Source: Clostridiales bacterium (GTDB lineage: Bacteria; Bacillota; Clostridia; Oscillospirales; Oscillospiraceae). From it: 64,000 nucleotides of DNA. A program made the translations under genes and the position numbers. Below, piece by piece: positions 9,718 through 34,352 of this stretch; within the stretch, counting starts at the first letter, position 1, and each line of letters starts with the position of its first letter. The notes under the pieces were generated by a model. It ran no database searches. It had not been told where the DNA came from and worked only from the letters and a program-made list of their open reading frames with translations. The stretch spans positions 33,616 through 97,615 of the forward strand of contig SFLE01000009.1 of assembly GCA_004553495.1 (NCBI GenBank), read 5' to 3'.

Positions 9718-10776
9718 ATGGATATAAACATTAAAGTCAGAAATAAAATCGCCGCTGCCGAGGAAAAGGTAATTATCTGCGGCAACAGTGACTATATTAT
9801 CCGCTTTGACCTCGACGACGAGTGGGCGGAATATAAAACAAAAACAATGCGCGTTGACCTCTTGAACGGAACGCACGAGGAGGTCATATTCGACGGCGAC
9901 AGCTGCACGCTGCCCGCGATACACGACCGCACGAGGGTGGCCGTCGGCATCTATGCCGGAAACATCCGCACCACGACTCCTGCGGTGCTGTGCTGCGAAA
10001 AATGCATAACCGATGCAAACGGCGTGCCTGCGGCTCCGGCCGAGGATGTCTACTCGCAGCTTTTGCAGCGCCTGAACGATTTCGACGGCTACTGGCTGCC
10101 GGAGGTGTCCGAAACGGGCGAGCTGAGCTGGAAAAGGGAAAGCTCCGGTCAGGCGCCCGAGACCGCAAACATAAAGGGCGCTAAAGGGGACAAAGGCGAC
10201 AAGGGCGATGCGGGAAGCGCAGGCGCAAAGGGTGATAAGGGCGATGCAGGTGCGGCGGCGACCGTCGCTGTAGGCACCGTTACGACCGGTGCAGCCGGCT
10301 CGGAAGCCTCCGTCACAAACTCCGGAACGGTGAGTGCGGCGGTGCTCGATTTCGTCATCCCGCGCGGCGCCAAGGGCGATAAGGGCGATGCCGGCTCTGC
10401 CGCCGACTATATAGTGCAGACCGGCACCACCGGTAAATGGAGCTGGGAGAAATGGAACAGCGGCAAAAAGGTGTGCTGGGCGACATTTGACACAGATGCC
10501 CTCGTCACCGACAAGGCATGGGGATCATTGTATTACAACACATGGATGAACCTTGCCGCCAATAAGACCGCGCGCCGCTATCCGTTCGACTTTACGGAAA
10601 CGCCTGCAGTCATCGCGTCGGCTGCGCCCAACGGCTCGAGCGACTATTTCCTCATAACCGATTCCGGCAACAATCTCGGCACCGATAAGACCCACGCTCC
10701 GGCATATGCCATAGCGCGCCCGTCCGTCGGCACCGTCACCACACCGAAAATATCTTATTTCGTAGTCGGCAAATAA
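9718..10776 (+). CDS. Phage tail-fibre-like protein with collagen-like Gly-X-Y repeats
   Basis: 352 aa with no signal peptide. The N-domain (ICGNSDYIIRFDLDDEW...) and the element TGELSWKRESSGQAPETANIKGAKGDKGDKGD resemble prophage tail-fibre proteins of Firmicutes. There are two GAKGDKGDAG collagen-like blocks and a ~125-aa C-terminal globular domain. Confidence 0.65.
   Translation: MDINIKVRNKIAAAEEKVIICGNSDYIIRFDLDDEWAEYKTKTMRVDLLNGTHEEVIFDGDSCTLPAIHDRTRVAVGIYAGNIRTTTPAVLCCEKCITDANGVPAAPAEDVYSQLLQRLNDFDGYWLPEVSETGELSWKRESSGQAPETANIKGAKGDKGDKGDAGSAGAKGDKGDAGAAATVAVGTVTTGAAGSEASVTNSGTVSAAVLDFVIPRGAKGDKGDAGSAADYIVQTGTTGKWSWEKWNSGKKVCWATFDTDALVTDKAWGSLYYNTWMNLAANKTARRYPFDFTETPAVIASAAPNGSSDYFLITDSGNNLGTDKTHAPAYAIARPSVGTVTTPKISYFVVGK
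10177..10395 (+). repeat. Collagen-like G-X-Y coding repeats (two blocks: 10177-10248 and 10366-10395)
   Basis: GAKGDKGDKGDAGSAGAKGDKGDAG, and after a 39-aa spacer GAKGDKGDAGS. The nucleotide repeat is GGCGA(T/C)AAGGGCGATGC. Confidence 0.9.
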
Positions 10777-11475
10777 TTATTTCAGCTCCCCGCCGGCAGC
10801 GAGAACGGCTGCGCGCGCAAGCTCCAGCGTAGGGTCGATGTGCGGGAAGGAGAGCGAGTACATTTCAAATGCGCACGGCAGCTCCGTGCAGCCGAGGATG
10901 AGCGTCTGCGCGCCCTCTGCAAGAAGCCCGGCACAAGTGCGCTCGAAAGCCGCGGTGTCGTGACCGGCGTCTCCGGCTTTCACGCCGTTATATACAATGT
11001 CCATAACCGCCGCCTGTCCCTCAGCCGTCGGTGTTATAAGCTCAATACCGCTGCCGGAAAAGCAGCGGTCGTATATCCCGGTCTGCACCGTGCCGTCGGT
11101 GGCTAGAAGCCCCGCACGCTTTATGCCCGCCTGTGTGAGCGCCTGCACCGTTATGCGTATCATGTGCAGCACCGGAACGCTCACAGCCGCGCAGACCTCG
11201 TCGTAAAACCCGTGCGCGGTGTTGCAGGGCATGATGATAAGGCCGGCTCCGGCGGCCTCAAGCGTGCGCGCGGAGCGCTGCAACTGCGGCACCGGACTTT
11301 CGCCGCCGCGTATGAGCGCCGCGGTGCGGTCGGGGATAGCGGTGTTGCTGTCTATGATGATGTGTATGTGCTCCTGGTCGCAGGAGGCTTTCGTAACGCT
11401 TGTTATCTTGCGGAAAAGGTCAGCCGTTGCGGCAGGACCCATGCCGCCGAGAATACCGATAGTTTTCCTTTTCAT
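10777..11475 (-). CDS. Aspartate/glutamate racemase-family amino-acid racemase
   Basis: MKRKTIGILGGMGPAATADLF, with the catalytic Cys contexts MPCNTAH and LGCTELP. Start set at ATG 11473-11475; the ORF-track extension to 11586 overlaps the tRNA-Thr gene and is rejected. Confidence 0.85.
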   Translation of the reverse strand: MKRKTIGILGGMGPAATADLFRKITSVTKASCDQEHIHIIIDSNTAIPDRTAALIRGGESPVPQLQRSARTLEAAGAGLIIMPCNTAHGFYDEVCAAVSVPVLHMIRITVQALTQAGIKRAGLLATDGTVQTGIYDRCFSGSGIELITPTAEGQAAVMDIVYNGVKAGDAGHDTAAFERTCAGLLAEGAQTLILGCTELPCAFEMYSLSFPHIDPTLELARAAVLAAGGELK

Positions 11476-11766: not shown

Positions 11767-11918
11767 CAACTTTTGAAAACTTTTTTGCCGAACGGCGAAA
11801 TTTTTTCAGCGCTTCTTCTTTTTCTTCTTGGTTTTCTTGTTTTTATATCAACGACTATGTAGTAAGCGAGAATGCCGAGCACCAAAAATCCGACATATGC
11901 ATACCATGGCATATCCAT
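11763..11918 (-). CDS. Possible small membrane protein (51 aa)
   Basis: MDMPWYAYVGFLVLGILAYYIVVDIKTRKPRRKRR... has one TM helix and a basic tail, with a strong RBS AGGAGGGA immediately upstream. The longer ORF-track version (to 12116) has no RBS. Confidence 0.4.
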   Translation of the reverse strand: MDMPWYAYVGFLVLGILAYYIVVDIKTRKPRRKRRSAEKISPFGKKVFKSC

Positions 11919-12039
11919 CCCTCCTGACGAGATTAATATACAGTAAAATGCAGCTCGGGTCAAGGCGCAAAAAAGATATGGACAATAATGCGTGCATTGG
12001 GCTATAATTAACCGTATAAATTCCGAAAGGAAGAGGGCA

Positions 12040-13416
12040 ATGAAAAAGAATTTGAGATTTATTCTTGCGCTTTTCATAAGCAAGGCGGCAATGTGGCTGC
12101 AAAAGCTTCTGGGCATGAACGCAAGCTATTTTCCGGGCAAGCTCGCAATAAAGCTCTGCCCCGATTTCCTCGGCAGGATAGATAAGCCGAAAACCATTAT
12201 AACCGTCACCGGCACGAACGGCAAAACCACCTGCTGCAACCTCCTGCTGGATGTTCTCACCGACAACGGGTATGAGATACTGAACAACAGAGCGGGCTCA
12301 AACACCGATGCGGGCATCGCAAGCGCGCTCATCGCCGAGAGCACGCTGTCGGGCAAGGTGAAAAAGCAGTATGCCGTGTTTGAGGTCGATGAGCGCAGCT
12401 CGCAGAGGATATATAAATATGTCCACCCCGATTTTGCCGTTTGCACGAACCTTTTCCGCGATTCGATACAGCGCAACGCACATCCGGAGTTTATCTTCTC
12501 GTTTATCGACTCTGCGTTGCCGGACGATACGCACATGATACTCAATGCCGAGGACCCCATAAGCAGCAGACTGAAGACAAACAATAAGCGCACCTACTTC
12601 TCCATAAGCCGCCTGCCCAGCGACAGGACCGAGTGCGTAAATATCATAAACGATATGCGCGTGTGCCCCTGCTGCGGCGGAAAGCTCGAGTATGACTTCG
12701 TGCGCTATCACCACATCGGCAGGATGCACTGCCCCGACTGCGGCTTTGCGTCTCCCAAGCCCGACTATGAGGCGGCTCCCGACTACGAGGCAAAGACCTT
12801 CACCGTTCACACCAAAAACGGCGACGAGACCTATCCGCTCATAAACGACAGCGTTTTTAACACTTATAATCAGGTGACCGTTGTCGCCGTTCTGCGCGAG
12901 ATAGGGCTCAGCGCCAAAATGATAAGCGACAGTTTTGCGCACATGAGCATAGTCAAGTCGCGCTACACGAACATCGTTAAAAACGGCGTTGAGGTGGTCA
13001 CCAATATGACCAAGGGTCAGAATCCGGTGGCGTGCTCGATAGTGTTTGACTATATCCGCTCCGAATCTGGCGTTAAAGAGGTCATAGTCATGCTCGATGA
13101 CCTTACCTTCAAGAAAACGACCGAGATAGTCACATGGGTGTACGACGCGGACTTCGAGTTTTTAAACGATGAGAGCATAAAGCGCATAGTCGTGTGCGGC
13201 GTGAGGATGCACGATTACCACCTGCGCCTGCTGCTCGCCGGCGTTCCGGAAGAAAAGATCCGCTGCGTTGAGTTTGAGACCGACGCACCGGCGCAGCTTG
13301 AGCTCACTGGTACGGATAAGGTGTTTATCCTGCACGACCTGACGACGCCCAAGCTCACAAAGCAGGTGCGCGACGGCATTTTGGCGCGCCTTGAGGAAGG
13401 AGTGAGCGAGCAGTGA
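12040..13416 (+). CDS. murT: MurT-like Mur-ligase family protein (lipid II isoglutaminyl synthase ligase subunit family)
   Basis: P-loop VTGTNGKTT, the MurT-specific Cys4 ribbon CPCCGGKLEYDFVRYHHIGRMHCPDCG, EVDE and NLFRD motifs, and a C-terminal DUF1727-like WVYDADFE. Start at ATG 12040 (RBS GGAAGAGGG). Confidence 0.85.
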   Translation: MKKNLRFILALFISKAAMWLQKLLGMNASYFPGKLAIKLCPDFLGRIDKPKTIITVTGTNGKTTCCNLLLDVLTDNGYEILNNRAGSNTDAGIASALIAESTLSGKVKKQYAVFEVDERSSQRIYKYVHPDFAVCTNLFRDSIQRNAHPEFIFSFIDSALPDDTHMILNAEDPISSRLKTNNKRTYFSISRLPSDRTECVNIINDMRVCPCCGGKLEYDFVRYHHIGRMHCPDCGFASPKPDYEAAPDYEAKTFTVHTKNGDETYPLINDSVFNTYNQVTVVAVLREIGLSAKMISDSFAHMSIVKSRYTNIVKNGVEVVTNMTKGQNPVACSIVFDYIRSESGVKEVIVMLDDLTFKKTTEIVTWVYDADFEFLNDESIKRIVVCGVRMHDYHLRLLLAGVPEEKIRCVEFETDAPAQLELTGTDKVFILHDLTTPKLTKQVRDGILARLEEGVSEQ

Positions 13417-14123
13417 AAATAGAGATACTGTTTCCCGAGTTTGCAAACCTCTTCGGCGATTGCTGGAACTGGAGATACTTGGAGCGGTGTATGCCCGAAG
13501 CCGAGTTCGTTGAGACCGGCTATACCGACGAGCCGCGTTTTGCATCGGAAAAGGTGGATATGATAATCATGGGCGCCATGACCGAGAGCAAGCAGGAGCT
13601 CGTTATAAAAAAGCTCATGCCATACAGAGACAGACTGCGCCGGCTCATAGACTCCGGCACCGTGTTCCTTATGACCGCGAACGCCGGTGAGGTGTTCTGC
13701 GAGTATATCGAGAACGAGGACGGCAGCCGCGTTACCGCGCTCGGGCTCATCCCGCTGCACGCAAAGCGCGATATGCTGCACAGGTTTAACTCAACTCAGC
13801 TCTGCGAGTTCGGGAACATGGAACTCGTCGGCTTCAAGGCGGAGTTTTCGCAGCTTTACGGGGATAATAAGAACATCTGCTTTGCCCGCGCAAAATACGG
13901 CATAGGCATAAATAAGGGAACAAAGCTCGAGGGTGTGAGAGTCAACAACTTCTTCTCGACCTCTATGGTCGGCCCGTTTATAATGATGAACCCCGAATTC
14001 GTGAAATACCTCATGAAGCTCTTGGGTGTTGAGGAGCCTAAGCTTGCGTATGAGGAGACTATATACGCCGCTTACGAGCGCCGCCGCGCGGACATCATCC
14101 GCATGATGGACGAAAATAAATAA
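13413..14123 (+). CDS. gatD: GatD-like (CobQ-type glutamine amidotransferase fold) partner of MurT; catalytic residues apparently substituted
   Basis: GTG start overlaps the murT stop (GTGA). It aligns by eye along its length with S. aureus GatD (recalled sequence), but the Cys of ICGGYQ reads TANAGE and the His of YLHGP reads SMVGP. Confidence 0.75.
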   Translation: MKIEILFPEFANLFGDCWNWRYLERCMPEAEFVETGYTDEPRFASEKVDMIIMGAMTESKQELVIKKLMPYRDRLRRLIDSGTVFLMTANAGEVFCEYIENEDGSRVTALGLIPLHAKRDMLHRFNSTQLCEFGNMELVGFKAEFSQLYGDNKNICFARAKYGIGINKGTKLEGVRVNNFFSTSMVGPFIMMNPEFVKYLMKLLGVEEPKLAYEETIYAAYERRRADIIRMMDENK

Positions 14124-14132
14124 ATTATCAAA

Positions 14133-14161
14133 AAAACCGAGGTCAATTGACCTCGGTTTTT
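14133..14161. terminator. Terminator hairpin, copy 1 of a 29-bp identical palindromic repeat
   Basis: AAAACCGAGGTCAATTGACCTCGGTTTTT: 10-bp stem around AATT, with A-run and T-run flanks. Identical to 18526-18554. Confidence 0.9.
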
Positions 14162-14244
14162 GCACGCTATGCTACTTTTGTTGCAGATGAGAGAATGTTT
14201 AGACTGTATGATAATAATGTAACGATGTAGAAAGGGGCGCTGTA

Positions 14245-15120
14245 ATGGGCAGTCTGTTATATAGTCCGTCGCAGTTTGGCGATGTTGAGATAATGCGGGA
14301 CGAAGGTAATGCCTTCGTCGGACTTGCAACGCCCGACGGGGTAGAAGCCTGCACGCTTGACAGCCCCTTTATTGCCGATAAAAAGGTTCTTTCTGGCTAT
14401 GACGATGCCTGCGTCCAGATACGAAGAATTTTGACCGCCAAGATGAAGCTTGAGCTTCCGAGGGGCTACAGCCTCGCGCTCACGCCCGAGGATCTGGCGG
14501 TGTTTTTTTCGCAGGAGTGCGATATGAGCACGATGCGCGAATACATCGACGCAAAACGAGGGCTGGTCGCGGCGGAGACGGCGCTTTGGAGGCGTGAGCG
14601 CGCATGGGACACAAATCCTATGACCGCGCAGGAGGCAGCGGCGCACAATTTCGTGTTCGATGCTCAGAGCGGAGCAATAGCCACCGACGGGTGCTTTAAT
14701 CCGGCAACTAAAGTTGAGCTTCCGTCGTCGATCGACGGTGCTCGCGTGCGTGGGATAAAGGAATACGCCTTCGTGTCGTACACTTATCTTGAAACGCTTA
14801 TAATGCCCAACAGCGTGACATATCTTGAGCCTTATGCCTTTTACGATAAGGTCCATCTGCGCAATGCGAACCTGTCGAAAAATCTGACGAGAATATCCGA
14901 GGGCGCGTTCGCGCGCTGCCGTGCGCTCAATTCAATAGTCATACCCGAGGGTGTTACTCATATCGAGCCCGAGGCGTTTTATAAGTGCGCGAATCTTTTT
15001 TCGGTCTATATACCGGACAGTGTCGTGTCCGTCGGCAGGTGCGCTTTTCTGGATGTGCCGCATGTATATTACAAAGGTTCTGCCAAGGGCTTCCCATGGG
15101 GCGCGGCGGTCGGAAACTGA
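14245..15120 (+). CDS. Cytoplasmic BspA-type leucine-rich-repeat (LRR_5-like) protein with an unassigned N-domain
   Basis: 291 aa with no signal peptide or TM helix. The C-terminal half consists of ~23-aa repeats of the form AF..C..L..I.IP..V..I (IKEYAFVSYTYLETLIMPNSVTYLEPYAF; ISEGAFARCRALNSIVIPEGVTHIEPEAFYKCANLFSVYIPDSVVSVGRCAF). Confidence 0.7.
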   Translation: MGSLLYSPSQFGDVEIMRDEGNAFVGLATPDGVEACTLDSPFIADKKVLSGYDDACVQIRRILTAKMKLELPRGYSLALTPEDLAVFFSQECDMSTMREYIDAKRGLVAAETALWRRERAWDTNPMTAQEAAAHNFVFDAQSGAIATDGCFNPATKVELPSSIDGARVRGIKEYAFVSYTYLETLIMPNSVTYLEPYAFYDKVHLRNANLSKNLTRISEGAFARCRALNSIVIPEGVTHIEPEAFYKCANLFSVYIPDSVVSVGRCAFLDVPHVYYKGSAKGFPWGAAVGN

Positions 15121-15132
15121 AGGAGAGATAAA

Positions 15133-16437
15133 ATGAGAGGAAAAACCGAGAAGGTCATATGCGGCGGCAGCAATATGCGCGCGCCTATGAAGCTTGATTT
15201 CATAAGCTCGCTGAGTGAAGAGCGGTCTGCCGACTGGCCCGAGATCGTCATAGCGCGCTCCTCCCGCGAGGGCGAGCCCGTGTGCTTTGCCGCCGAGGAG
15301 GACGCGGGCGATATCTTTAACTGCATCGGCATCGTATCCGAGCCAACGGAGCAGCTTATATCCATGCTGCGTACAGCGCCCGTCACTGCGCGTCCGCGCG
15401 CACTTTGCAGAAAAGACGGAACGGTATGCACTGCCGACGATCCGGCTGTGTGGGGCTTCATAGCCGAGTATGAGACTGCCGACAAGCTGTCCGCCGCAGT
15501 GCGCGAGGCGATAGCTCAGGCGGTGCTGCGCGGCTGCGGAAGCGAGACGGAGCTCAATGACAGAGCCGAATATATGCTCGAGCAGGGCATACCGCAGAAG
15601 ATAATAATTCGCGCACTTGAGCATATGCTCGCAGAGCCCGCGTACCCCGAACTCGTACCCTGCCCGCCGGTGAGATTTGTGCAGGCCGACGCTTACGGGG
15701 AGCTCACGCGTGGTCTGGCATACCGCATGTCGGGTCTCAACCTCCGTCTCATCGGCGGCAAGGGCTGCGGCAAGAACACGCTTGCGCAGACGCTCGACTG
15801 GCTTCTGAACATCCCGCAGTACAGGATGCAGGGCAACGCCGAAATGGATAAGCTCGATCTTCTCGGCGGTCCGACGATAGAAAACGGAACGCTGCACTAT
15901 AAGCTCAGCGATATGCTGCGCTATATCGAGGCAGGAGCGGATGTCGTGCTTGACGAGGGCAACACCATAAAGCCCGAGTGCGCCGATGTGCTGCACTCGC
16001 TGACCGACGAGGCGCGCAGAATACAGGTGCCAGGCTATGGACTTGTGAAAATGCACCCGAAATCCTCGTTTACTATAACCATGAACGAGGGCTATGCAGG
16101 AACAAATTACATGAACGAGGCGACCATCGACCGATTTACTCCGATACAGATGTCAGAGCCCGAGAGCGTAAAGGAGATACTGCGCCGCGTCGTGCCTACT
16201 GCGCCGGAGCACTGCCTGAGCATCTGCGATGTGGTCTACTGTGCGATAAAAAGCCGCATCGACTCAGCCGGCGGTCTCGAGCCCGAGGCGATGACGATCC
16301 GCGGTCTTGTTGACGCTCTGCGCGCCGAACCGCTGCTGGGACTCAAATGGGGCCTGTTGGATAATGTCGCAGCCAAGCCGCAGGATCAGTATACTCGCCT
16401 GCAGCTTACAGAGCTCATAGAGAGCGTGGTGCCCTGA
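15133..16437 (+). CDS. AAA+ ATPase, AAA_5 / CobS-MoxR-like core with a ~200-aa unassigned N-domain
   Basis: RBS AGGAGA. Walker A LIGGKGCGKNT (Asn in place of Ser/Thr), Walker B DVVLDEGN, TITMNEGY...ATIDRF. Its stop overlaps the next start (TGATG). Confidence 0.8.
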   Translation: MRGKTEKVICGGSNMRAPMKLDFISSLSEERSADWPEIVIARSSREGEPVCFAAEEDAGDIFNCIGIVSEPTEQLISMLRTAPVTARPRALCRKDGTVCTADDPAVWGFIAEYETADKLSAAVREAIAQAVLRGCGSETELNDRAEYMLEQGIPQKIIIRALEHMLAEPAYPELVPCPPVRFVQADAYGELTRGLAYRMSGLNLRLIGGKGCGKNTLAQTLDWLLNIPQYRMQGNAEMDKLDLLGGPTIENGTLHYKLSDMLRYIEAGADVVLDEGNTIKPECADVLHSLTDEARRIQVPGYGLVKMHPKSSFTITMNEGYAGTNYMNEATIDRFTPIQMSEPESVKEILRRVVPTAPEHCLSICDVVYCAIKSRIDSAGGLEPEAMTIRGLVDALRAEPLLGLKWGLLDNVAAKPQDQYTRLQLTELIESVVP

Positions 16438-18527
16438 TGGACGCCGGTGCACTTGAGCGGTATGAGGAGTTTTTACGCTCAGAGCCTATCGAGAGTATAC
16501 TCAGCCGAAACCTCGGCTTTCTCCTCTATGATAATGAGCTCGTTTCCGCCGTGAAGCTCGATACCTCGCTTAAAAATCGCACTGAGGGAGGGCAGGTGAT
16601 CCTTGGCGGTGTGCCGTATCTTCTGCGCCCCGACTTTGACCGCCGCCACTGGACGGCGGGACTTCGCGTGCTTTTGGCGCACAAGGTGCAGCACGATAAC
16701 AGCTCCGATTCCGATGCTCTAAAGAGAGTGTGCGAATTTTCCGAGCGCCTTTTTGAAGAGCGGGGCTTTCGCCCATTTGTCGGGCACATACTCGGGCAGC
16801 GGGTCATGAACATCCTCGAGGATGCGAGAGTGAACAACATCATCTGCTGCCGCTTCCCGGGCTATGTCCCCATGCTGCGCTTTGTGAGCTATGCAAAAAC
16901 GGACAGCCTCGAGCCGGACGGCACCCTGGAGGAGTTTTTCGCGCGGCTTGAGATATGCGCGCTCACGGGCCTCGGCTCGGGTCTCGACGGGGAGATAAAA
17001 AGGCTGATTGACGCAGCCGCCGTCGCAAAGACCTGTGCTGACTGTGAGAGGATATGCTTACAGATGTTAACGGGCACGGCGGAGCTTTTTGCGCGGCTTT
17101 GCGGCGCAGAGCCCGATCTGCCCGCAGCGCTCGAGAGGATAAACGCGCAGATCGAGGACTATGCGTTTTCAGCCGAAACGCGCCTTGAGCAGCGCGGCGA
17201 CGGCAGCGACAGCTATCTGCGCAGTCACGCGCCCGAGCCGGAAACCGAGCGCAAGGGCACGCCCGACGACGGCGACGATGCCGACGGCGATAAAGGCAAC
17301 AGCGCAAGCCCTGGCAGCGGAGATAATTCCGAGCGCCGCGGCGATATGAGCGGCAGTCTCACGGGATCCGATGTGAAGCCTAAGGACAGCGCAGGAACTG
17401 ACGGACGAGAGGACAGGGGCGCGTCGTCGAGCGCCGGACGCTCGACAAACCACGGACAGAGCAGCTCGCTCGGCATAAAAAACGACTCCGGAAGCGCCCT
17501 CTCCAAGGCTTTTGCCGAAGGACCGAACTCCGTGCGCGAGGTCATCGGTGCGGGATTTTCCCGCAAGCGCTCGGCGGCGCTGACCGAGGCGGAGCTCAAT
17601 CAGATGCTCGGCAGCGCGGCATCGGAGCTCCTGCGCGAGCGGCGGTATGAAAAACTGAGCACCGTTCAAGCCGCGGGCGCAAGCCGTCTGAGCCTTGACG
17701 ACCGCTCGAAGCTTGCGGGAGCTTACTCCTCCGTCAAATTTGAAGAGAGCAGCATAGCTCCCACTCGGCGCAGACTTCCGCCGCAGTACGCAGAAAAGGC
17801 CCGGCAGATGCACAAGCGGCTCGACCGCATCCTGCGTGAGCAGCGCAGACGCAGCCTCAGTCAGCGGCGCGGCGCACTCTCGGAAAGCGAGCTGTGGAAA
17901 ATTCCGCTCGGCTCAAGGCACATATTCAAGAGCAAAACGCCGCCGAAAACGCGCGAGACCGCCTTTTATCTGCTCATCGACCGCAGCGGAAGCATGGGTA
18001 CGGGGCTCGGCAACGGCAGCTCGAAGCTCTTCACGGCGCTCATGACGGCTGCGATGATAGAGGAGGCGCTGAAGGATATAGCCTATACGAAGATAGTCGC
18101 CTTCGACGGCGGACCGGACATCGTCGAGCATTGCGTCATAAAGGATTTCGAGCAAAAGGAGTTCGGCAGCCGCTGCTTTGATGCGATAACGCAGCTTTCC
18201 GCCGGAAACGGTAATAAGGACGGCTATTCCATCCGCGTTGCGTCCATGGAGCTCATAAAGCGCTGCGAAAAGCGCAGGATACTGGTCGTTCTGTCCGACG
18301 GGCTGCCGTCTGCATACAGGGGCGAGGCGGAGGCAATAGAGGATGTGCGCAGCGCGGTGCACGAGGCAAAGCGACGCGGCATAATCGTGATCCCCGTCAT
18401 CTATGCCGCCGACACGAAGCACAGCCTCGAGGCGTATATGAAGATGTATGGCAAGAATCTCATTCTCGCGTCCGACAGCAGCATTCTGTCCGAGTTTGAA
18501 AAGATGTTGATCAAGCTTATAAAATAA
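16437..18527 (+). CDS. VWA-domain protein, CobT/NorD-like (N-domain, long acidic disordered linker, C-terminal VWA)
   Basis: 696 aa. MIDAS motif LLIDRSGSMG...GNKDGYSIRVA...VVLSDGLPS. Central low-complexity stretch PEPETERKGTPDDGDDADGDKGNSASPGSGDNSERRGD...SSSAGRSTNHGQSSS, like the acidic linker of CobT. Confidence 0.8.
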   Translation: MDAGALERYEEFLRSEPIESILSRNLGFLLYDNELVSAVKLDTSLKNRTEGGQVILGGVPYLLRPDFDRRHWTAGLRVLLAHKVQHDNSSDSDALKRVCEFSERLFEERGFRPFVGHILGQRVMNILEDARVNNIICCRFPGYVPMLRFVSYAKTDSLEPDGTLEEFFARLEICALTGLGSGLDGEIKRLIDAAAVAKTCADCERICLQMLTGTAELFARLCGAEPDLPAALERINAQIEDYAFSAETRLEQRGDGSDSYLRSHAPEPETERKGTPDDGDDADGDKGNSASPGSGDNSERRGDMSGSLTGSDVKPKDSAGTDGREDRGASSSAGRSTNHGQSSSLGIKNDSGSALSKAFAEGPNSVREVIGAGFSRKRSAALTEAELNQMLGSAASELLRERRYEKLSTVQAAGASRLSLDDRSKLAGAYSSVKFEESSIAPTRRRLPPQYAEKARQMHKRLDRILREQRRRSLSQRRGALSESELWKIPLGSRHIFKSKTPPKTRETAFYLLIDRSGSMGTGLGNGSSKLFTALMTAAMIEEALKDIAYTKIVAFDGGPDIVEHCVIKDFEQKEFGSRCFDAITQLSAGNGNKDGYSIRVASMELIKRCEKRRILVVLSDGLPSAYRGEAEAIEDVRSAVHEAKRRGIIVIPVIYAADTKHSLEAYMKMYGKNLILASDSSILSEFEKMLIKLIK

Positions 18528-18554
18528 AACCGAGGTCAATTGACCTCGGTTTTT
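18526..18554. terminator. Terminator hairpin, copy 2 of the 29-bp identical palindromic repeat (bidirectional; abuts the stop of the MBL gene)
   Basis: AAAACCGAGGTCAATTGACCTCGGTTTTT, identical to 14133-14161. Confidence 0.9.
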
Positions 18555-33395: not shown

Positions 33396-34352
33396 ATGAC
33401 TGACGGTTACGGCAGAAAAATTGAATATCTGCGTATGTCAGTGACCGACGGCTGCAATCTGCGGTGCCGCTACTGTATGCCGCCGGACGGCATGGCGGAG
33501 TGCCCGTGCCGAACGGCGATGAGCGCCGACGAGTTTGTGGAAATAGCCCGCGCGGCAGCCGGTCTCGGCATGAAAAAGCTGCGCATAACCGGCGGCGAGC
33601 CGCTGGTGAGGAGCGATATAATCCCACTCGTGCGCGCTCTCGGAGCAATAGACGGCATCGAGGATATGAGCTTGACGACAAACGCAACTCTGCTCGCACC
33701 GTGCGCGGAGGAGTTGTATAACGCCGGCATACGCAGAATAAACATAAGCCTCGACACGCTGGTTCCGGAAAAATACGAGCGGATAACCCGCGGAGGCAGG
33801 CTCGCGGACGCGCTTTGCGGCATACATGCCGCGCTCGATGCAGGCATGAGCCCCGTTAAGCTGAACACCGTTCTGATAGGCGGGTTCAACGATGATGAGA
33901 TAGAGTCCCTTGCGGAGCTCACGCTGCGCTATCCGGTGCAGCTTCGGTTTATAGAGCTCATGCCCATCGGCAATACGGGTGACTTTCCGGCAACCGCGTA
34001 TCTGCCGGACAGCGTTGTGCTCGAGCGCCTGCCGCAGCTTGCGCCGGTGCCGAGTGAAAAGCACACCGTCGCGCGGCTGTTCAGACTGCCGGACGCCAAA
34101 GGCGAGGTGGGGCTCATAAGCCCCTTGAGCAACCATTTCTGCGCCGAGTGTAACCGTCTGCGCCTGACTGCCGACGGCTGCTTAAAGCCGTGTCTGCACT
34201 CTGCCGAGGAGCTTCCGGTGCGCGGACTGCACGGCGAGGAGCTGAAAAGAGCGATACTCACCGCGGCATCGCACAAGCCGGAAAAGCACGGCGCGCTCTC
34301 GGCGACCGAGCGCAGCGAGGCGCAGCGCAGTATGTACCGTATAGGAGGCTGA
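33396..34352 (+). CDS. moaA: GTP 3',8-cyclase MoaA (radical SAM)
   Basis: CNLRCRYCMP cluster, second cluster CAECNRLRLTADGCLKPCL, C-terminal GG. Confidence 0.93.
   Translation: MTDGYGRKIEYLRMSVTDGCNLRCRYCMPPDGMAECPCRTAMSADEFVEIARAAAGLGMKKLRITGGEPLVRSDIIPLVRALGAIDGIEDMSLTTNATLLAPCAEELYNAGIRRINISLDTLVPEKYERITRGGRLADALCGIHAALDAGMSPVKLNTVLIGGFNDDEIESLAELTLRYPVQLRFIELMPIGNTGDFPATAYLPDSVVLERLPQLAPVPSEKHTVARLFRLPDAKGEVGLISPLSNHFCAECNRLRLTADGCLKPCLHSAEELPVRGLHGEELKRAILTAASHKPEKHGALSATERSEAQRSMYRIGG

Follow-up and report, generated by a model that had tools for sequence, protein, structure and literature searches.

A conserved, accessory three-gene cassette of a cytoplasmic LRR protein, a MoxR/CobS-type AAA+ ATPase and a CobT-like VWA protein in gut Oscillospiraceae

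We analysed a 64,000-nucleotide stretch (hereafter the window) of a gut Oscillospiraceae chromosome, corresponding to positions 33,616 to 97,615 of contig SFLE01000009.1 from the Clostridiales bacterium assembly GCA_004553495.1. It contains a cassette of three co-oriented genes on the plus strand, ORF1-ORF2-ORF3 (open reading frames 1 to 3), which encode a leucine-rich repeat (LRR) protein, an AAA+ ATPase and a protein with a C-terminal VWA domain. The three genes are conserved together, and their chromosomal site is empty in sister species. We propose, with about as much confidence as doubt, that the trio is an accessory and self-contained three-subunit machine for ATP-driven protein remodelling, exapted from a gene pair of mobile-element replication modules, and that it is not a chelatase.

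Joint conservation and accessory status of the trio

We surveyed the gene neighbourhoods of ORF2 homologues on their encoding contigs, in species-representative genomes and on metagenome contigs. In all loci where ORF2 is at least 59% identical to that of the window (about 45 loci), a full-length ORF1 homologue (38–100% identity) is encoded directly upstream. An ORF3 homologue is encoded downstream in the same loci, wherever the contig reaches. A preliminary description of this DNA, made from the sequence, had set the LRR gene as a conserved third partner as a test, and the LRR gene was found at every one of these loci. The flanks of the trio are unrelated between genera and represent about 10 different contexts. 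These include murT-gatD with a metallo-beta-lactamase (MBL) fold hydrolase, as in the window, FtsH with a Na/Ca exchanger, FtsH with a CoA-transferase/ETF, SseB/pyruvate kinase with MCRA, and HD/hydrolase with YjbR. The downstream neighbourhood of one identical ORF2 protein (P0023) takes two different forms. Purifying selection acts on each of the three genes, with ratios of nonsynonymous to synonymous substitution rates (dN/dS) of 0.07–0.15 that are similar to that of the housekeeping gene gatD, and they are therefore real genes.

A scan that used the protein of the adjacent gatD gene recovered both occupied and empty sites at similar gatD identity. The empty sites comprise nine contigs on which murT-gatD is followed directly by the convergent MBL gene. 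At the empty site, a single terminator hairpin is followed by GCTATG, after which comes the stop codon of the MBL gene. The window has a 4393-bp insertion carrying the trio between two identical copies of the hairpin, and GCTATG is retained at the left junction. Because the empty sites have a single hairpin, the trio is an accessory 4.4-kb insertion in the terminator. The sequence shared by the two flanking hairpins is 29–32 nt long and is present in only two copies in the 64 kb, where none is expected by chance. The same duplicated hairpin surrounds the cassette on contig L070, which is 99–100% identical to the window. In other trio-bearing lineages the two hairpins are different, so the duplication is old and its copies have diverged in those lineages, or else it is recent or has been homogenised in the window.

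No integrase or transposase was found at the cassette. We considered the hairpin repeat as a general mobile-element att site or target-site duplication and rejected this, because the hairpins of the other lineages differ and there is no integrase or transposase. The duplicated hairpin stays a real feature of the window strain and of the near-identical contig L070.

The synonymous divergence (dS) of the trio is incongruent with that of its neighbour. Against L018, L005 and L019, dS is 0.5–0.7 for the trio and 1.2–1.3 for gatD (window 13413–14123), and against L020 it is 1.2–2.1 for the trio and 0.84 for gatD. The cassette thus seems to have moved between related species; homologous recombination through the flanks or the hairpin would be the simplest mechanism.

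Some variation was seen at related sites. At the same gatD/MBL site of L062 (OQVT01008804.1, positions 2628–2935), a different hairpin, AAAAAATGAGATGCATTTGCATCTCATTTTT, is duplicated around a hairpin-rich non-coding insert of ~260 nt; the contig compared with it, L063, has a single hairpin there. Hairpin duplication upon insertion may be recurrent at the gatD/MBL terminator. On L005 (positions 11852–13187), whose ORF2 is 90% identical to that of the window, a 156-aa gene and a DUF7662/DUF7225 gene lie between ORF3 and the MBL gene, so the right-hand cassette junction is itself a variable spot. The metagenome-assembled genome (MAG) JAKOSQ01 has two copies of the trio (L029 versus L035/L038) with 83–84% nucleotide identity, which are either paralogous cassettes in one genome or two strains that were binned together.

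Domain architecture of the three proteins

A Pfam profile search agreed with the domains proposed in the preliminary description, namely LRR_5 in ORF1, AAA_5 in ORF2 and CobT_C/VWA in ORF3. ORF1 comprises a family-specific N-domain (residues 1–135), a short BspA-type LRR_5 solenoid (about residues 140–275; Pfam match at 167–269, E=5e-24) and an invariant C-terminal tail, GFPWGAxVGN; no anchoring domain was matched. Its AlphaFold2 (AF2) model, with a predicted local distance difference test score (pLDDT) of 90.8, combines an N-terminal beta/alpha domain with the short solenoid. Foldseek retrieved only LRR proteins with this model (e.g., TpLRR 6mlx and 4gt6), and the structural neighbours are confined to the LRR part. 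A profile of the N-domain had 30 matches in 1.84 billion representatives, essentially all of them in the same family. We found essentially no occurrence of this N-domain in other architectures, the matches to P0313 and P0318 being spurious repeat matches.

ORF1 has no hydrophobic N-terminus or transmembrane segment by a crude hydropathy test that is not equivalent to SignalP (maximum Kyte-Doolittle 19-residue mean of 1.32), in line with the earlier reading of a signal-less protein. All 20 of the 20 aligned orthologues begin straight with the conserved N-domain. ORF1 shares LRR_5 repeats and TpLRR fold matches with the BspA-type surface LRR proteins but, as judged by hydropathy and Pfam, lacks their signal peptide, lipobox and cell-wall or dockerin anchor. 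The dN/dS of ORF1 is 0.12–0.15. Conservation in ORF1 is highest in the LRR region and the C-terminal tail, which fits a fixed ligand. The acidic residues D13, E34, D122, D148, D164 and E243 are invariant.

Two observations concern other LRR proteins. In P0307 (533 aa, a single cluster), the C-terminal two-thirds of an ORF1-like protein are fused to a lipoprotein-type NMT1/THI5-like solute-binding protein; this may be a real variant that is exported, or a chimera that arose in gene calling or assembly. Proteins of ~457 aa that combine LRR_5 with BRCT (PF00533) occur in gut Clostridia (P0158, P0166, P0171, P0177–P0186 and P0211). They represent another apparently cytoplasmic use of BspA-type LRRs, possibly related to DNA damage.

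ORF2 matches AAA_5 at residues 205–335 (nt 15745–16137; E=2e-18, 66.9 bits against a cutoff of 22). Residues 1–200 have no Pfam assignment, as the preliminary description had noted for this N-domain. Within them, residues 50–200 are conserved and lack the HIRAN domain of more distant homologues, and residues 50–434 align with residues 171–555 of the HIRAN-bearing P0075. The nearest sequences in the Protein Data Bank (PDB) are CbbQ (6l1q), midasin and NorQ (9qh4), and the best PHROG match is phrog_249 (E=8e-22). NCBIfam returned only GvpN and ClpX, far below the cutoffs (GvpN TIGR02640, 48.8 bits against 266.8). The homologues of ORF2 form about 100 clusters, mainly from gut metagenomes and Oscillospiraceae MAGs. 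Across 18 homologues, down to 29% identity, the Walker B residues D274-E275, the sensor 1 residue N318, R334 and R390 are invariant, and so are the Walker A residues G208, G211, G213, K214 and N215. The Walker A motif (G208/G211/G213-K214-N215; residues 207–215, window 15751–15777) reads GGKGCGKN and aligns to GPTGCGKS of CbbQ; the canonical pattern GxxGxGK[S/T] was not found in ORF2.

ORF3 consists of an alpha-helical N-domain with a zincin-like motif (residues 1–254), a linker (255–400), a basic helical segment (401–505) and a VWA domain (506–696). Pfam assigned CobT_C, VWA_2 and VWA within residues 511–667, the CobT_C match spanning only 34 residues around the VWA core, and left the N-terminal region unassigned. 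The VWA domain aligns to NorD (9qhd), and the PHROG matches of ORF3 are phrog_1576 (E=2e-15) and phrog_17276 (E=3e-11). The MIDAS (metal ion-dependent adhesion site) is complete, with D515-x-S517-G-S519 (DRSGS, nt 17979–17993), N593/D595 and S620-D621-G622, and its residues are conserved across homologues down to 24% identity. The linker is of low complexity, with 40% S/G/T/N, 17% D/E and 13% hydrophobic residues. Both results agree with the MIDAS motif and the ~130-aa acidic/Ser-Gly linker of the preliminary description.

The N-domain of ORF3 had been called unassignable. This holds with respect to Pfam families, but not with respect to motif and fold. In the family alignment, an HExxH motif occupies residues 82–86, in a long helix after a small beta-sheet, and NxxEDxR follows ~40 residues later; together they constitute a zincin-like signature. 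The AF2 model of the N-domain (pLDDT 92.3, predicted template modelling score 0.90) matches with a probability of 1.0 the N-terminal parts of VWFA/CobT-like phage proteins of 600–800 aa; these are encoded by haloarchaeal tailed viruses, Gordonia phages and uncultured Caudovirales. HExxH is present at the equivalent position in 11 out of 12 VWA partners from phages, plasmids and chromosomes. These 11 include a cyanophage protein labelled “peptidase”, a Gordonia phage “CobT” and a Klebsiella plasmid protein.

Within the clade that carries the LRR partner, 33 clusters have HExxH, 34 have RExxH (with NILEQxR), two have QExxH and one, that of the window, has HKxxH. The 99%-identical P0223 reads HEVQH, so that E83K corresponds to a single G-to-A change at 16683 that is private to the window. 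The change may be real and inactivating, or it may have arisen in sequencing or assembly. If the family has any peptidase activity, the window copy should have lost it through E83K.

Relatives in phages, plasmids and replication modules

Profile matches place the AAA/VWA pair of the trio in a widespread phage and plasmid “cobST-like” family (PHROG 249, 17276 and 1576). The preliminary description could not match the trio to a described system, which no longer applies to the pair. In PHROG, phrog_249 is labelled “porphyrin biosynthesis” (CobS-like), and phrog_1576 and phrog_17276 are labelled “CobT”. A two-gene “cobST” cluster is widespread in tailed viruses, where it has been proposed to hijack the host CobN, and the cyanophage cobT is often annotated as a peptidase (Liu et al., PMC8651126). 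That annotation is explained by an HExxH at the same position. We found no experimental study of the CobS-like/CobT-like/DUF3150 family in the searchable literature.

Distant relatives of the pair occupy replication-module contexts in at least 12 replicons, from which the LRR gene is absent. The order (SSB/YabA/exonuclease)-primase-AAA-VWA-DnaE was found in replicons of Bacillus thuringiensis, Geobacillus, Clostridium perfringens, Aneurinibacillus, Bacillus sp., Jeotgalibacillus and C. difficile. An IMG/VR contig has the order AAA-VWA-MucR-primase/helicase-SNF2. Klebsiella plasmids have helicase ... AAA-DUF3150-(636-aa protein) ... toprim, in which the 636-aa protein has HExxH at the family position and no DxSGS match. 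The pair of a T4-like cyanophage has SbcC-like genes on one side and clamp/clamp-loader genes on the other, and its homology is weakly supported. We did not retain the cyanophage “peptidase” as a proven homologue of ORF3: hhalign gave a probability of 10%, and it is suggestive only through its HExxH/NxxEDxR/DxSGS arrangement. The neighbours of the Gordonia phage pair are hypothetical proteins, and this context is uninformative.

A scan of viral contigs for the trio gave one distant match and no LRR-bearing version. The human-gut “phage” contigs H1–H4 were discarded as evidence of phage origin. L041 (MT836279.1, “Bacteriophage sp.”, UNVERIFIED) encodes ribosomal protein S20 and an AcrB-family transporter beside an AAA_5/CobT_C pair, and is probably bacterial DNA rather than a phage genome. 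On the C. perfringens megaplasmid pJFP838A, a 409-aa LRR_5 protein (L002, positions 9893–11122; E=9e-54) adjoins the AAA/VWA pair on the opposite strand. It has only LRR repeats in common with ORF1, and it may adjoin the pair by chance or through an LRR association that arose independently.

Outside the LRR clade, the closest relatives form a HIRAN clade within the Oscillospiraceae, with 39–55% identity for ORF2 and 28–37% for ORF3. HIRAN is a DNA 3'-end binding domain. Here the ATPase carries it as an N-terminal fusion, which in P0075 and P0093 exceeds the Pfam threshold. The cluster, seen on seven independent contigs, reads RecD2 - type IA topoisomerase - X - HIRAN-AAA - VWA - sigma factor and is accompanied by UvrD or DnaE. 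We found no description of such clusters of HIRAN-AAA_5, VWA and X in the searchable literature. X is a protein of about 340 aa and a probable distant relative of DUF3150, judging from DUF3150 matches in four out of five members (best E=3e-4, below the Pfam cutoff). We examined ORF1 as a diverged homologue of X and rejected this, since BLAST found nothing and hhalign gave a probability of 0.6%. The switch of the third partner from X to the LRR protein falls between 55% and about 60% ORF2 identity. P0032 is an intermediate: a HIRAN-like extension is retained in degenerate form, the partner is already an LRR protein, and the context is not one of replication. On these sequence comparisons, the third partner is a recurring but replaceable element.

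Judging from the HIRAN fusions, the replication neighbourhoods and the conservation of HExxH, proteins at replicating DNA may be the targets of the ancestral pair. The preliminary description had named cobalamin, nitric oxide reductase (NOR) and gas-vesicle loci lacking the LRR gene as contexts that would speak against it. No such loci were found, but the distant relatives do reside in replication modules, with the LRR gene absent and HIRAN present.

Organization of the locus

The coordinates of the three co-directional ORFs, the 12-nt gap between ORF1 and ORF2 and the TGATG overlap were exactly as first described (Table 1). The gap contains a ribosome-binding site, AGGAGAG, located 7 nt 5' of the ORF2 ATG, and the TGATG shared by the ORF2 stop and the ORF3 start lies at 16435–16439. 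The trio had also been described as bracketed by terminators. We found a strong hairpin on each side, with a folding free energy (dG) of about -19 to -20 kcal/mol and z of about -7 (upstream hairpin, dG -20.4 kcal/mol, z -6.7), which together with a promoter-like region delimit a self-contained unit. A scan for consensus terminators called the downstream hairpin and missed the upstream one, because the A/U tracts are taken up by the stem. The promoter-like region includes a TGTATGATAAT...GTAAC element about 25–40 nt 5' of ORF1. The motif TGTATGATA(A/G)T..TAAC is kept 5' of ORF1 homologues, including those of a clade at 69% ORF2 identity, and the region 5' of ORF1 probably acts as the promoter of the cassette.

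Table 1. Features of the cassette, in window coordinates
Feature	Position	Strand	Description
ORF1	14245–15120	+	291 aa, cytoplasmic LRR protein
ORF2	15133–16437	+	434 aa, AAA+ ATPase of MoxR/CbbQ/NorQ/CobS class
ORF3	16437–18527	+	696 aa, CobT-like adaptor with C-terminal VWA
Upstream hairpin	14130–14161	.	palindromic AAAAAAACCGAGGTCAATTGACCTCGGTTTTT; terminates gatD; left insertion boundary
Downstream hairpin	18523–18554	.	bidirectional terminator of ORF3 (+) and MBL-fold hydrolase (-); right insertion boundary
Promoter-like region	14187–14223	+	sigma-70-like match ATGAGA-17-GATAAT
HKVQH	16680–16694	+	degenerate HExxH of ORF3; codon 83 AAG (Lys, nt 16683–16685), Glu in relatives

The neighbourhood of the trio in the window is chromosomal and consists of housekeeping genes (murT-gatD and the MBL hydrolase). 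Elsewhere in the window (9718–10776, plus strand), GroEL and an Asp/Glu racemase flank a 352-aa ORF that has collagen-like GDKGDKGDAG/GAKGDKGDAG repeats and lacks a Pfam match. Its product may resemble a phage tail fibre or an exosporium protein; further phage genes were not seen in its vicinity.

Discussion

In the machine that we propose, ORF2 would form an AAA+ ring of the MoxR/CobS type, as expected from its family. Two systems serve as analogies for the other subunits. In NorQD, a finger of NorD enters the NorQ pore, ATP hydrolysis remodels the NorD linker and the MIDAS grips the client (PMC13036017). In CobSTN, CobT reaches into the CobS ring with a shaft and is bound by CobN on its opposite face (preprint 10.64898/2026.07.21.739949). 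By analogy with both, ORF3 would be an adaptor whose N-domain and long linker engage the ring and whose VWA MIDAS grips an acidic residue of a partner. ORF1 would be the dedicated third subunit, in place of a DUF3150-like protein or the chelatase CobN, and its LRR surface would pick a conserved cytoplasmic protein target. The motor would then remodel or extract this target, and orthologues with an intact HExxH might cleave it. In the window copy the peptidase step would be disabled by E83K, leaving ATP-dependent remodelling or sequestration. The gene structure, the domains, the conservation of the trio as a unit, its accessory insertion and its family relationships and contexts are observed; the geometry of ring, adaptor and client, the existence of a protein target and the peptidase activity are inferred. 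In evolutionary terms, the cassette would be a reduced offshoot of the AAA+/HExxH-VWA pair that resides in replication modules of phages, megaplasmids and some Oscillospiraceae chromosomes. On the way, HIRAN would have been lost, the DUF3150-like partner swapped for the LRR protein and the replication neighbourhood left behind.

Several points weigh against this proposal. Family-wide, the Walker A motif of ORF2 is GxxGxGK-N, with Asn in place of the Mg-coordinating Ser/Thr, and N215 is invariant down to 29% identity. The peptidase assignment of the ORF3 N-domain is based on motif and topology. Foldseek found no neighbour of this domain at E<1 in the PDB, hence no zincin, and Pfam searches at E≤10 with seven N-domains gave only noise and no peptidase family. 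The motif is degenerate (RExxH) in half of the LRR clade, so proteolysis cannot be the essential activity of the clade. Moreover, a function carried over from replication-module relatives with 28–55% identity is an extrapolation, and ORF1 could be a client rather than a specificity subunit.

We compared the trio with known systems that it resembles. It shares with the cobST-like pair of tailed phages (T4-like cyanophages, haloarchaeal tailed viruses and Gordonia phages) an AAA_5 ATPase adjacent to a ~600–800-aa protein with a C-terminal VWA/MIDAS, the fold of the ORF3 N-domain (probability 1.0) and the position of HExxH. The trio is instead chromosomal, in unrelated chromosomal contexts outside any replication module. 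It has a dedicated LRR gene that none of the phage or plasmid examples has, its HExxH is degenerate in the window, and its identity to the phage and plasmid relatives is 22–36%. The HIRAN-X clusters are the closest relatives outside the LRR clade and have the same gene order of third partner, AAA and VWA; they differ in their HIRAN domain, unrelated partner X, intact HExxH and replication/repair neighbourhood, none of which the trio has. A pair in jumbo phages of group 2.2 likewise consists of an AAA+ MoxR ATPase and a vWA protein with an N-terminal metallopeptidase domain, and a role in virion assembly was proposed for it (Iyer et al. 2021; PMC7824862). We liken the trio to this pair by its description alone; in the jumbo phages the proposed role is virion assembly and no LRR partner was reported.

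Among the host systems, NorQ/NorD and CbbQ/CbbO provide the best solved-structure matches for the ORF2 ATPase and the ORF3 VWA domain and have the same two-component logic. The trio differs from them by the absence of NOR or Rubisco clients, its own HExxH-type N-domain, its extra LRR subunit and its accessory status. With CobS-CobT-CobN the trio shares a weak CobT_C match and a three-subunit logic of motor ring, VWA adaptor with acidic linker and third, substrate-holding subunit, but the third subunit of the trio is a 291-aa LRR protein. The vWA-MoxR ternary systems have as third component VMAP, inactive STAND (iSTAND), FtsH-type or beta-propeller proteins, carry variable effectors C-terminal to the vWA domain and use an ATPase of a CoxD-derived lineage (Kaur, Burroughs, Iyer and Aravind 2020; PMC7159879). 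They resemble the trio as compact units of a MoxR-type ATPase, a vWA protein and a lineage-variable third component. In the trio, however, ORF1 is an orphan N-domain with LRR_5 and not VMAP, iSTAND, FtsH or a beta-propeller. The VWA domain is the C-terminal end of ORF3 (residues 506–696 of 696) with no fused effector, ORF2 is of the AAA_5/CobS-CbbQ type, and the host is a unicellular gut Firmicute. Lacking these third components and fused effectors, the trio does not fit the published definition of such conflict systems.

The usual annotation of viral cobST would make the trio a metal-insertion chaperone, either a CobST-like motor that hijacks CobN/ChlH or a NorQD/CbbQO-like activase of a host metalloenzyme. 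The CobT_C match in Pfam, the PHROG labels, the proposed hijacking of CobN by viral CobST (PMC8651126) and the proximity of the AAA and VWA domains to CbbQ/NorQ and NorD speak for it. However, the CobT_C match covers 34 residues only, neither protein has an NCBIfam CobS/CobT match (ORF3 has no NCBIfam match at all), and Pfam detects no CobT N-domain (PF06213), in whose place there is an HExxH N-domain. As the preliminary description had noted for the window, no client pathway is nearby: we found no cobalamin, CobN-like, NOR, Rubisco or gas-vesicle genes in the neighbourhood of the window or in the flanks of orthologous trios, about 10 contexts in all. The missing models, N-domain and client genes make cobalt or iron insertion unlikely; the replication-gene contexts of the family, with HIRAN fusions in some members, and the dedicated LRR partner point away from it as well, and we regard this explanation as very improbable. 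The trio might also be an inert mobile-element remnant on its way to decay. The private E83K change, the loss of HIRAN and the absence of associated mobility genes are compatible with this, but the three ORFs are intact with the low dN/dS given above, similar to gatD, many species share the unit, at identities down to 59%, and the coupled translation signals are preserved. An inert remnant is already disfavoured by these data, and we attach hardly any probability to it. Alternatively, the trio may still act on DNA-bound proteins in replication or repair, with ORF1 replacing HIRAN as the recruiting module, for example in the removal of trapped topoisomerase or replisome proteins, by an analogy to SPRTN/Wss1 and p97 that counts against the idea as being inference only. 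Its relatives are set among genes for RecD2, type IA topoisomerase, UvrD and DnaE, or among those for primase, SSB and DnaE, and others adjoin phage primase-helicase/SNF2 genes. The ATPases P0075 and P0093 have a HIRAN fusion that scores over the Pfam threshold, and HExxH is conserved in the replication-module relatives; the intermediate with a degenerate HIRAN-like extension and an LRR partner, and the cytoplasmic LRR_5+BRCT proteins of the same bacteria, fit as well. Yet the trio has lost HIRAN and every replication or repair neighbour, it is dispensable, since empty sites exist, and Pfam, NCBIfam and PHROG detected no DNA-binding domain in the three proteins. We consider a continued role at DNA rather improbable.

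The main rival to protein remodelling is an anti-phage or anti-plasmid conflict system, in which the LRR would sense an invader protein, plausibly a homologous replication-module component, the AAA+/VWA proteins would be an ATP-dependent switch, and HExxH cleavage or sequestration would be the effector. Pattern recognition is a classic task of LRR modules. The presence of the cassette in some sister species and its absence from others at one and the same site, the incongruence of trio and gatD divergence, which suggests horizontal exchange, the identical ORF2 protein in two downstream contexts and the mobile-element ancestry of the pair would all be in keeping with defence. So would the swapping of the third partner between clades, as in the vWA-MoxR ternary systems (PMC7159879). 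On the other side, none of the three proteins matched any family of PADLOC-DB v2.0.0 (2023 library) at E≤0.1, and there is no recognisable toxic effector, the sole candidate catalytic site being degenerate in half of the clade and in the window. The neighbours are housekeeping genes and not defence islands, the LRR is more conserved than the rest of ORF1 (dN/dS 0.12–0.15) and has no sign of diversifying selection, and the VMAP, iSTAND, FtsH, beta-propeller and vWA-fused effector components of the published ternary systems are missing. For the defence module that the preliminary description had considered, the accessory status and signs of horizontal exchange therefore offer indirect support, while the PADLOC search and the other evidence offer no direct support. 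We regard defence as unlikely, though a serious contender. Overall, the interpretation given in the preliminary description is partly supported.

A broader reading can be extended to the whole cobST-like family, including the core cyanophage genes, whose labels are porphyrin/cobalamin biosynthesis; the family would then not be a pair for auxiliary cobalamin metabolism. On account of the HIRAN fusions and the primase/DnaE/topoisomerase/clamp-loader neighbourhoods, the family could be a replisome-associated AAA+ unfoldase with an HExxH-VWA protease or adaptor that clears or remodels proteins at DNA ends or forks. The LRR trio would then be a host-captured derivative, re-targeted by the LRR sensor and possibly a counter-mobile-element system of a new kind, directed at the replication machinery of phage or plasmid invaders. 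We offer this as a speculation and consider it unlikely.

Conclusions

The AAA+/VWA couple as a kind is known already, as is the cobST-like family, which is functionally unstudied. What appears to be new is the obligate cytoplasmic LRR third subunit and the behaviour of the trio as an accessory cassette at a terminator hairpin. The links of the family to HExxH, HIRAN, a DUF3150-like partner and replication modules, which contradict the usual cobalamin annotation, also appear to be new. In the literature and databases that we searched, we found no description of the combination of an LRR protein with a MoxR/CobS-type motor and a VWA adaptor. The trio is well delimited and directly testable, and the function that we propose for it from sequence evidence is as yet unproven. 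Its presence or absence at a defined terminator with a duplicated hairpin provides a natural knock-out/knock-in pair for functional studies.

For the abundant uncultured Oscillospiraceae of the human gut, the finding defines a conserved and portable three-gene module whose MoxR/CobS-type motor and VWA adaptor have a cytoplasmic BspA-type LRR protein as their obligate partner. For the family, it bears on the “CobS/CobT” proteins of viruses and plasmids, which are usually counted as cobalamin auxiliary metabolic genes and routinely mislabelled as a vitamin-B12 enzyme. Their conserved HExxH, their HIRAN fusions and their location in replication modules argue instead for a replication-linked role in protein remodelling or proteolysis.

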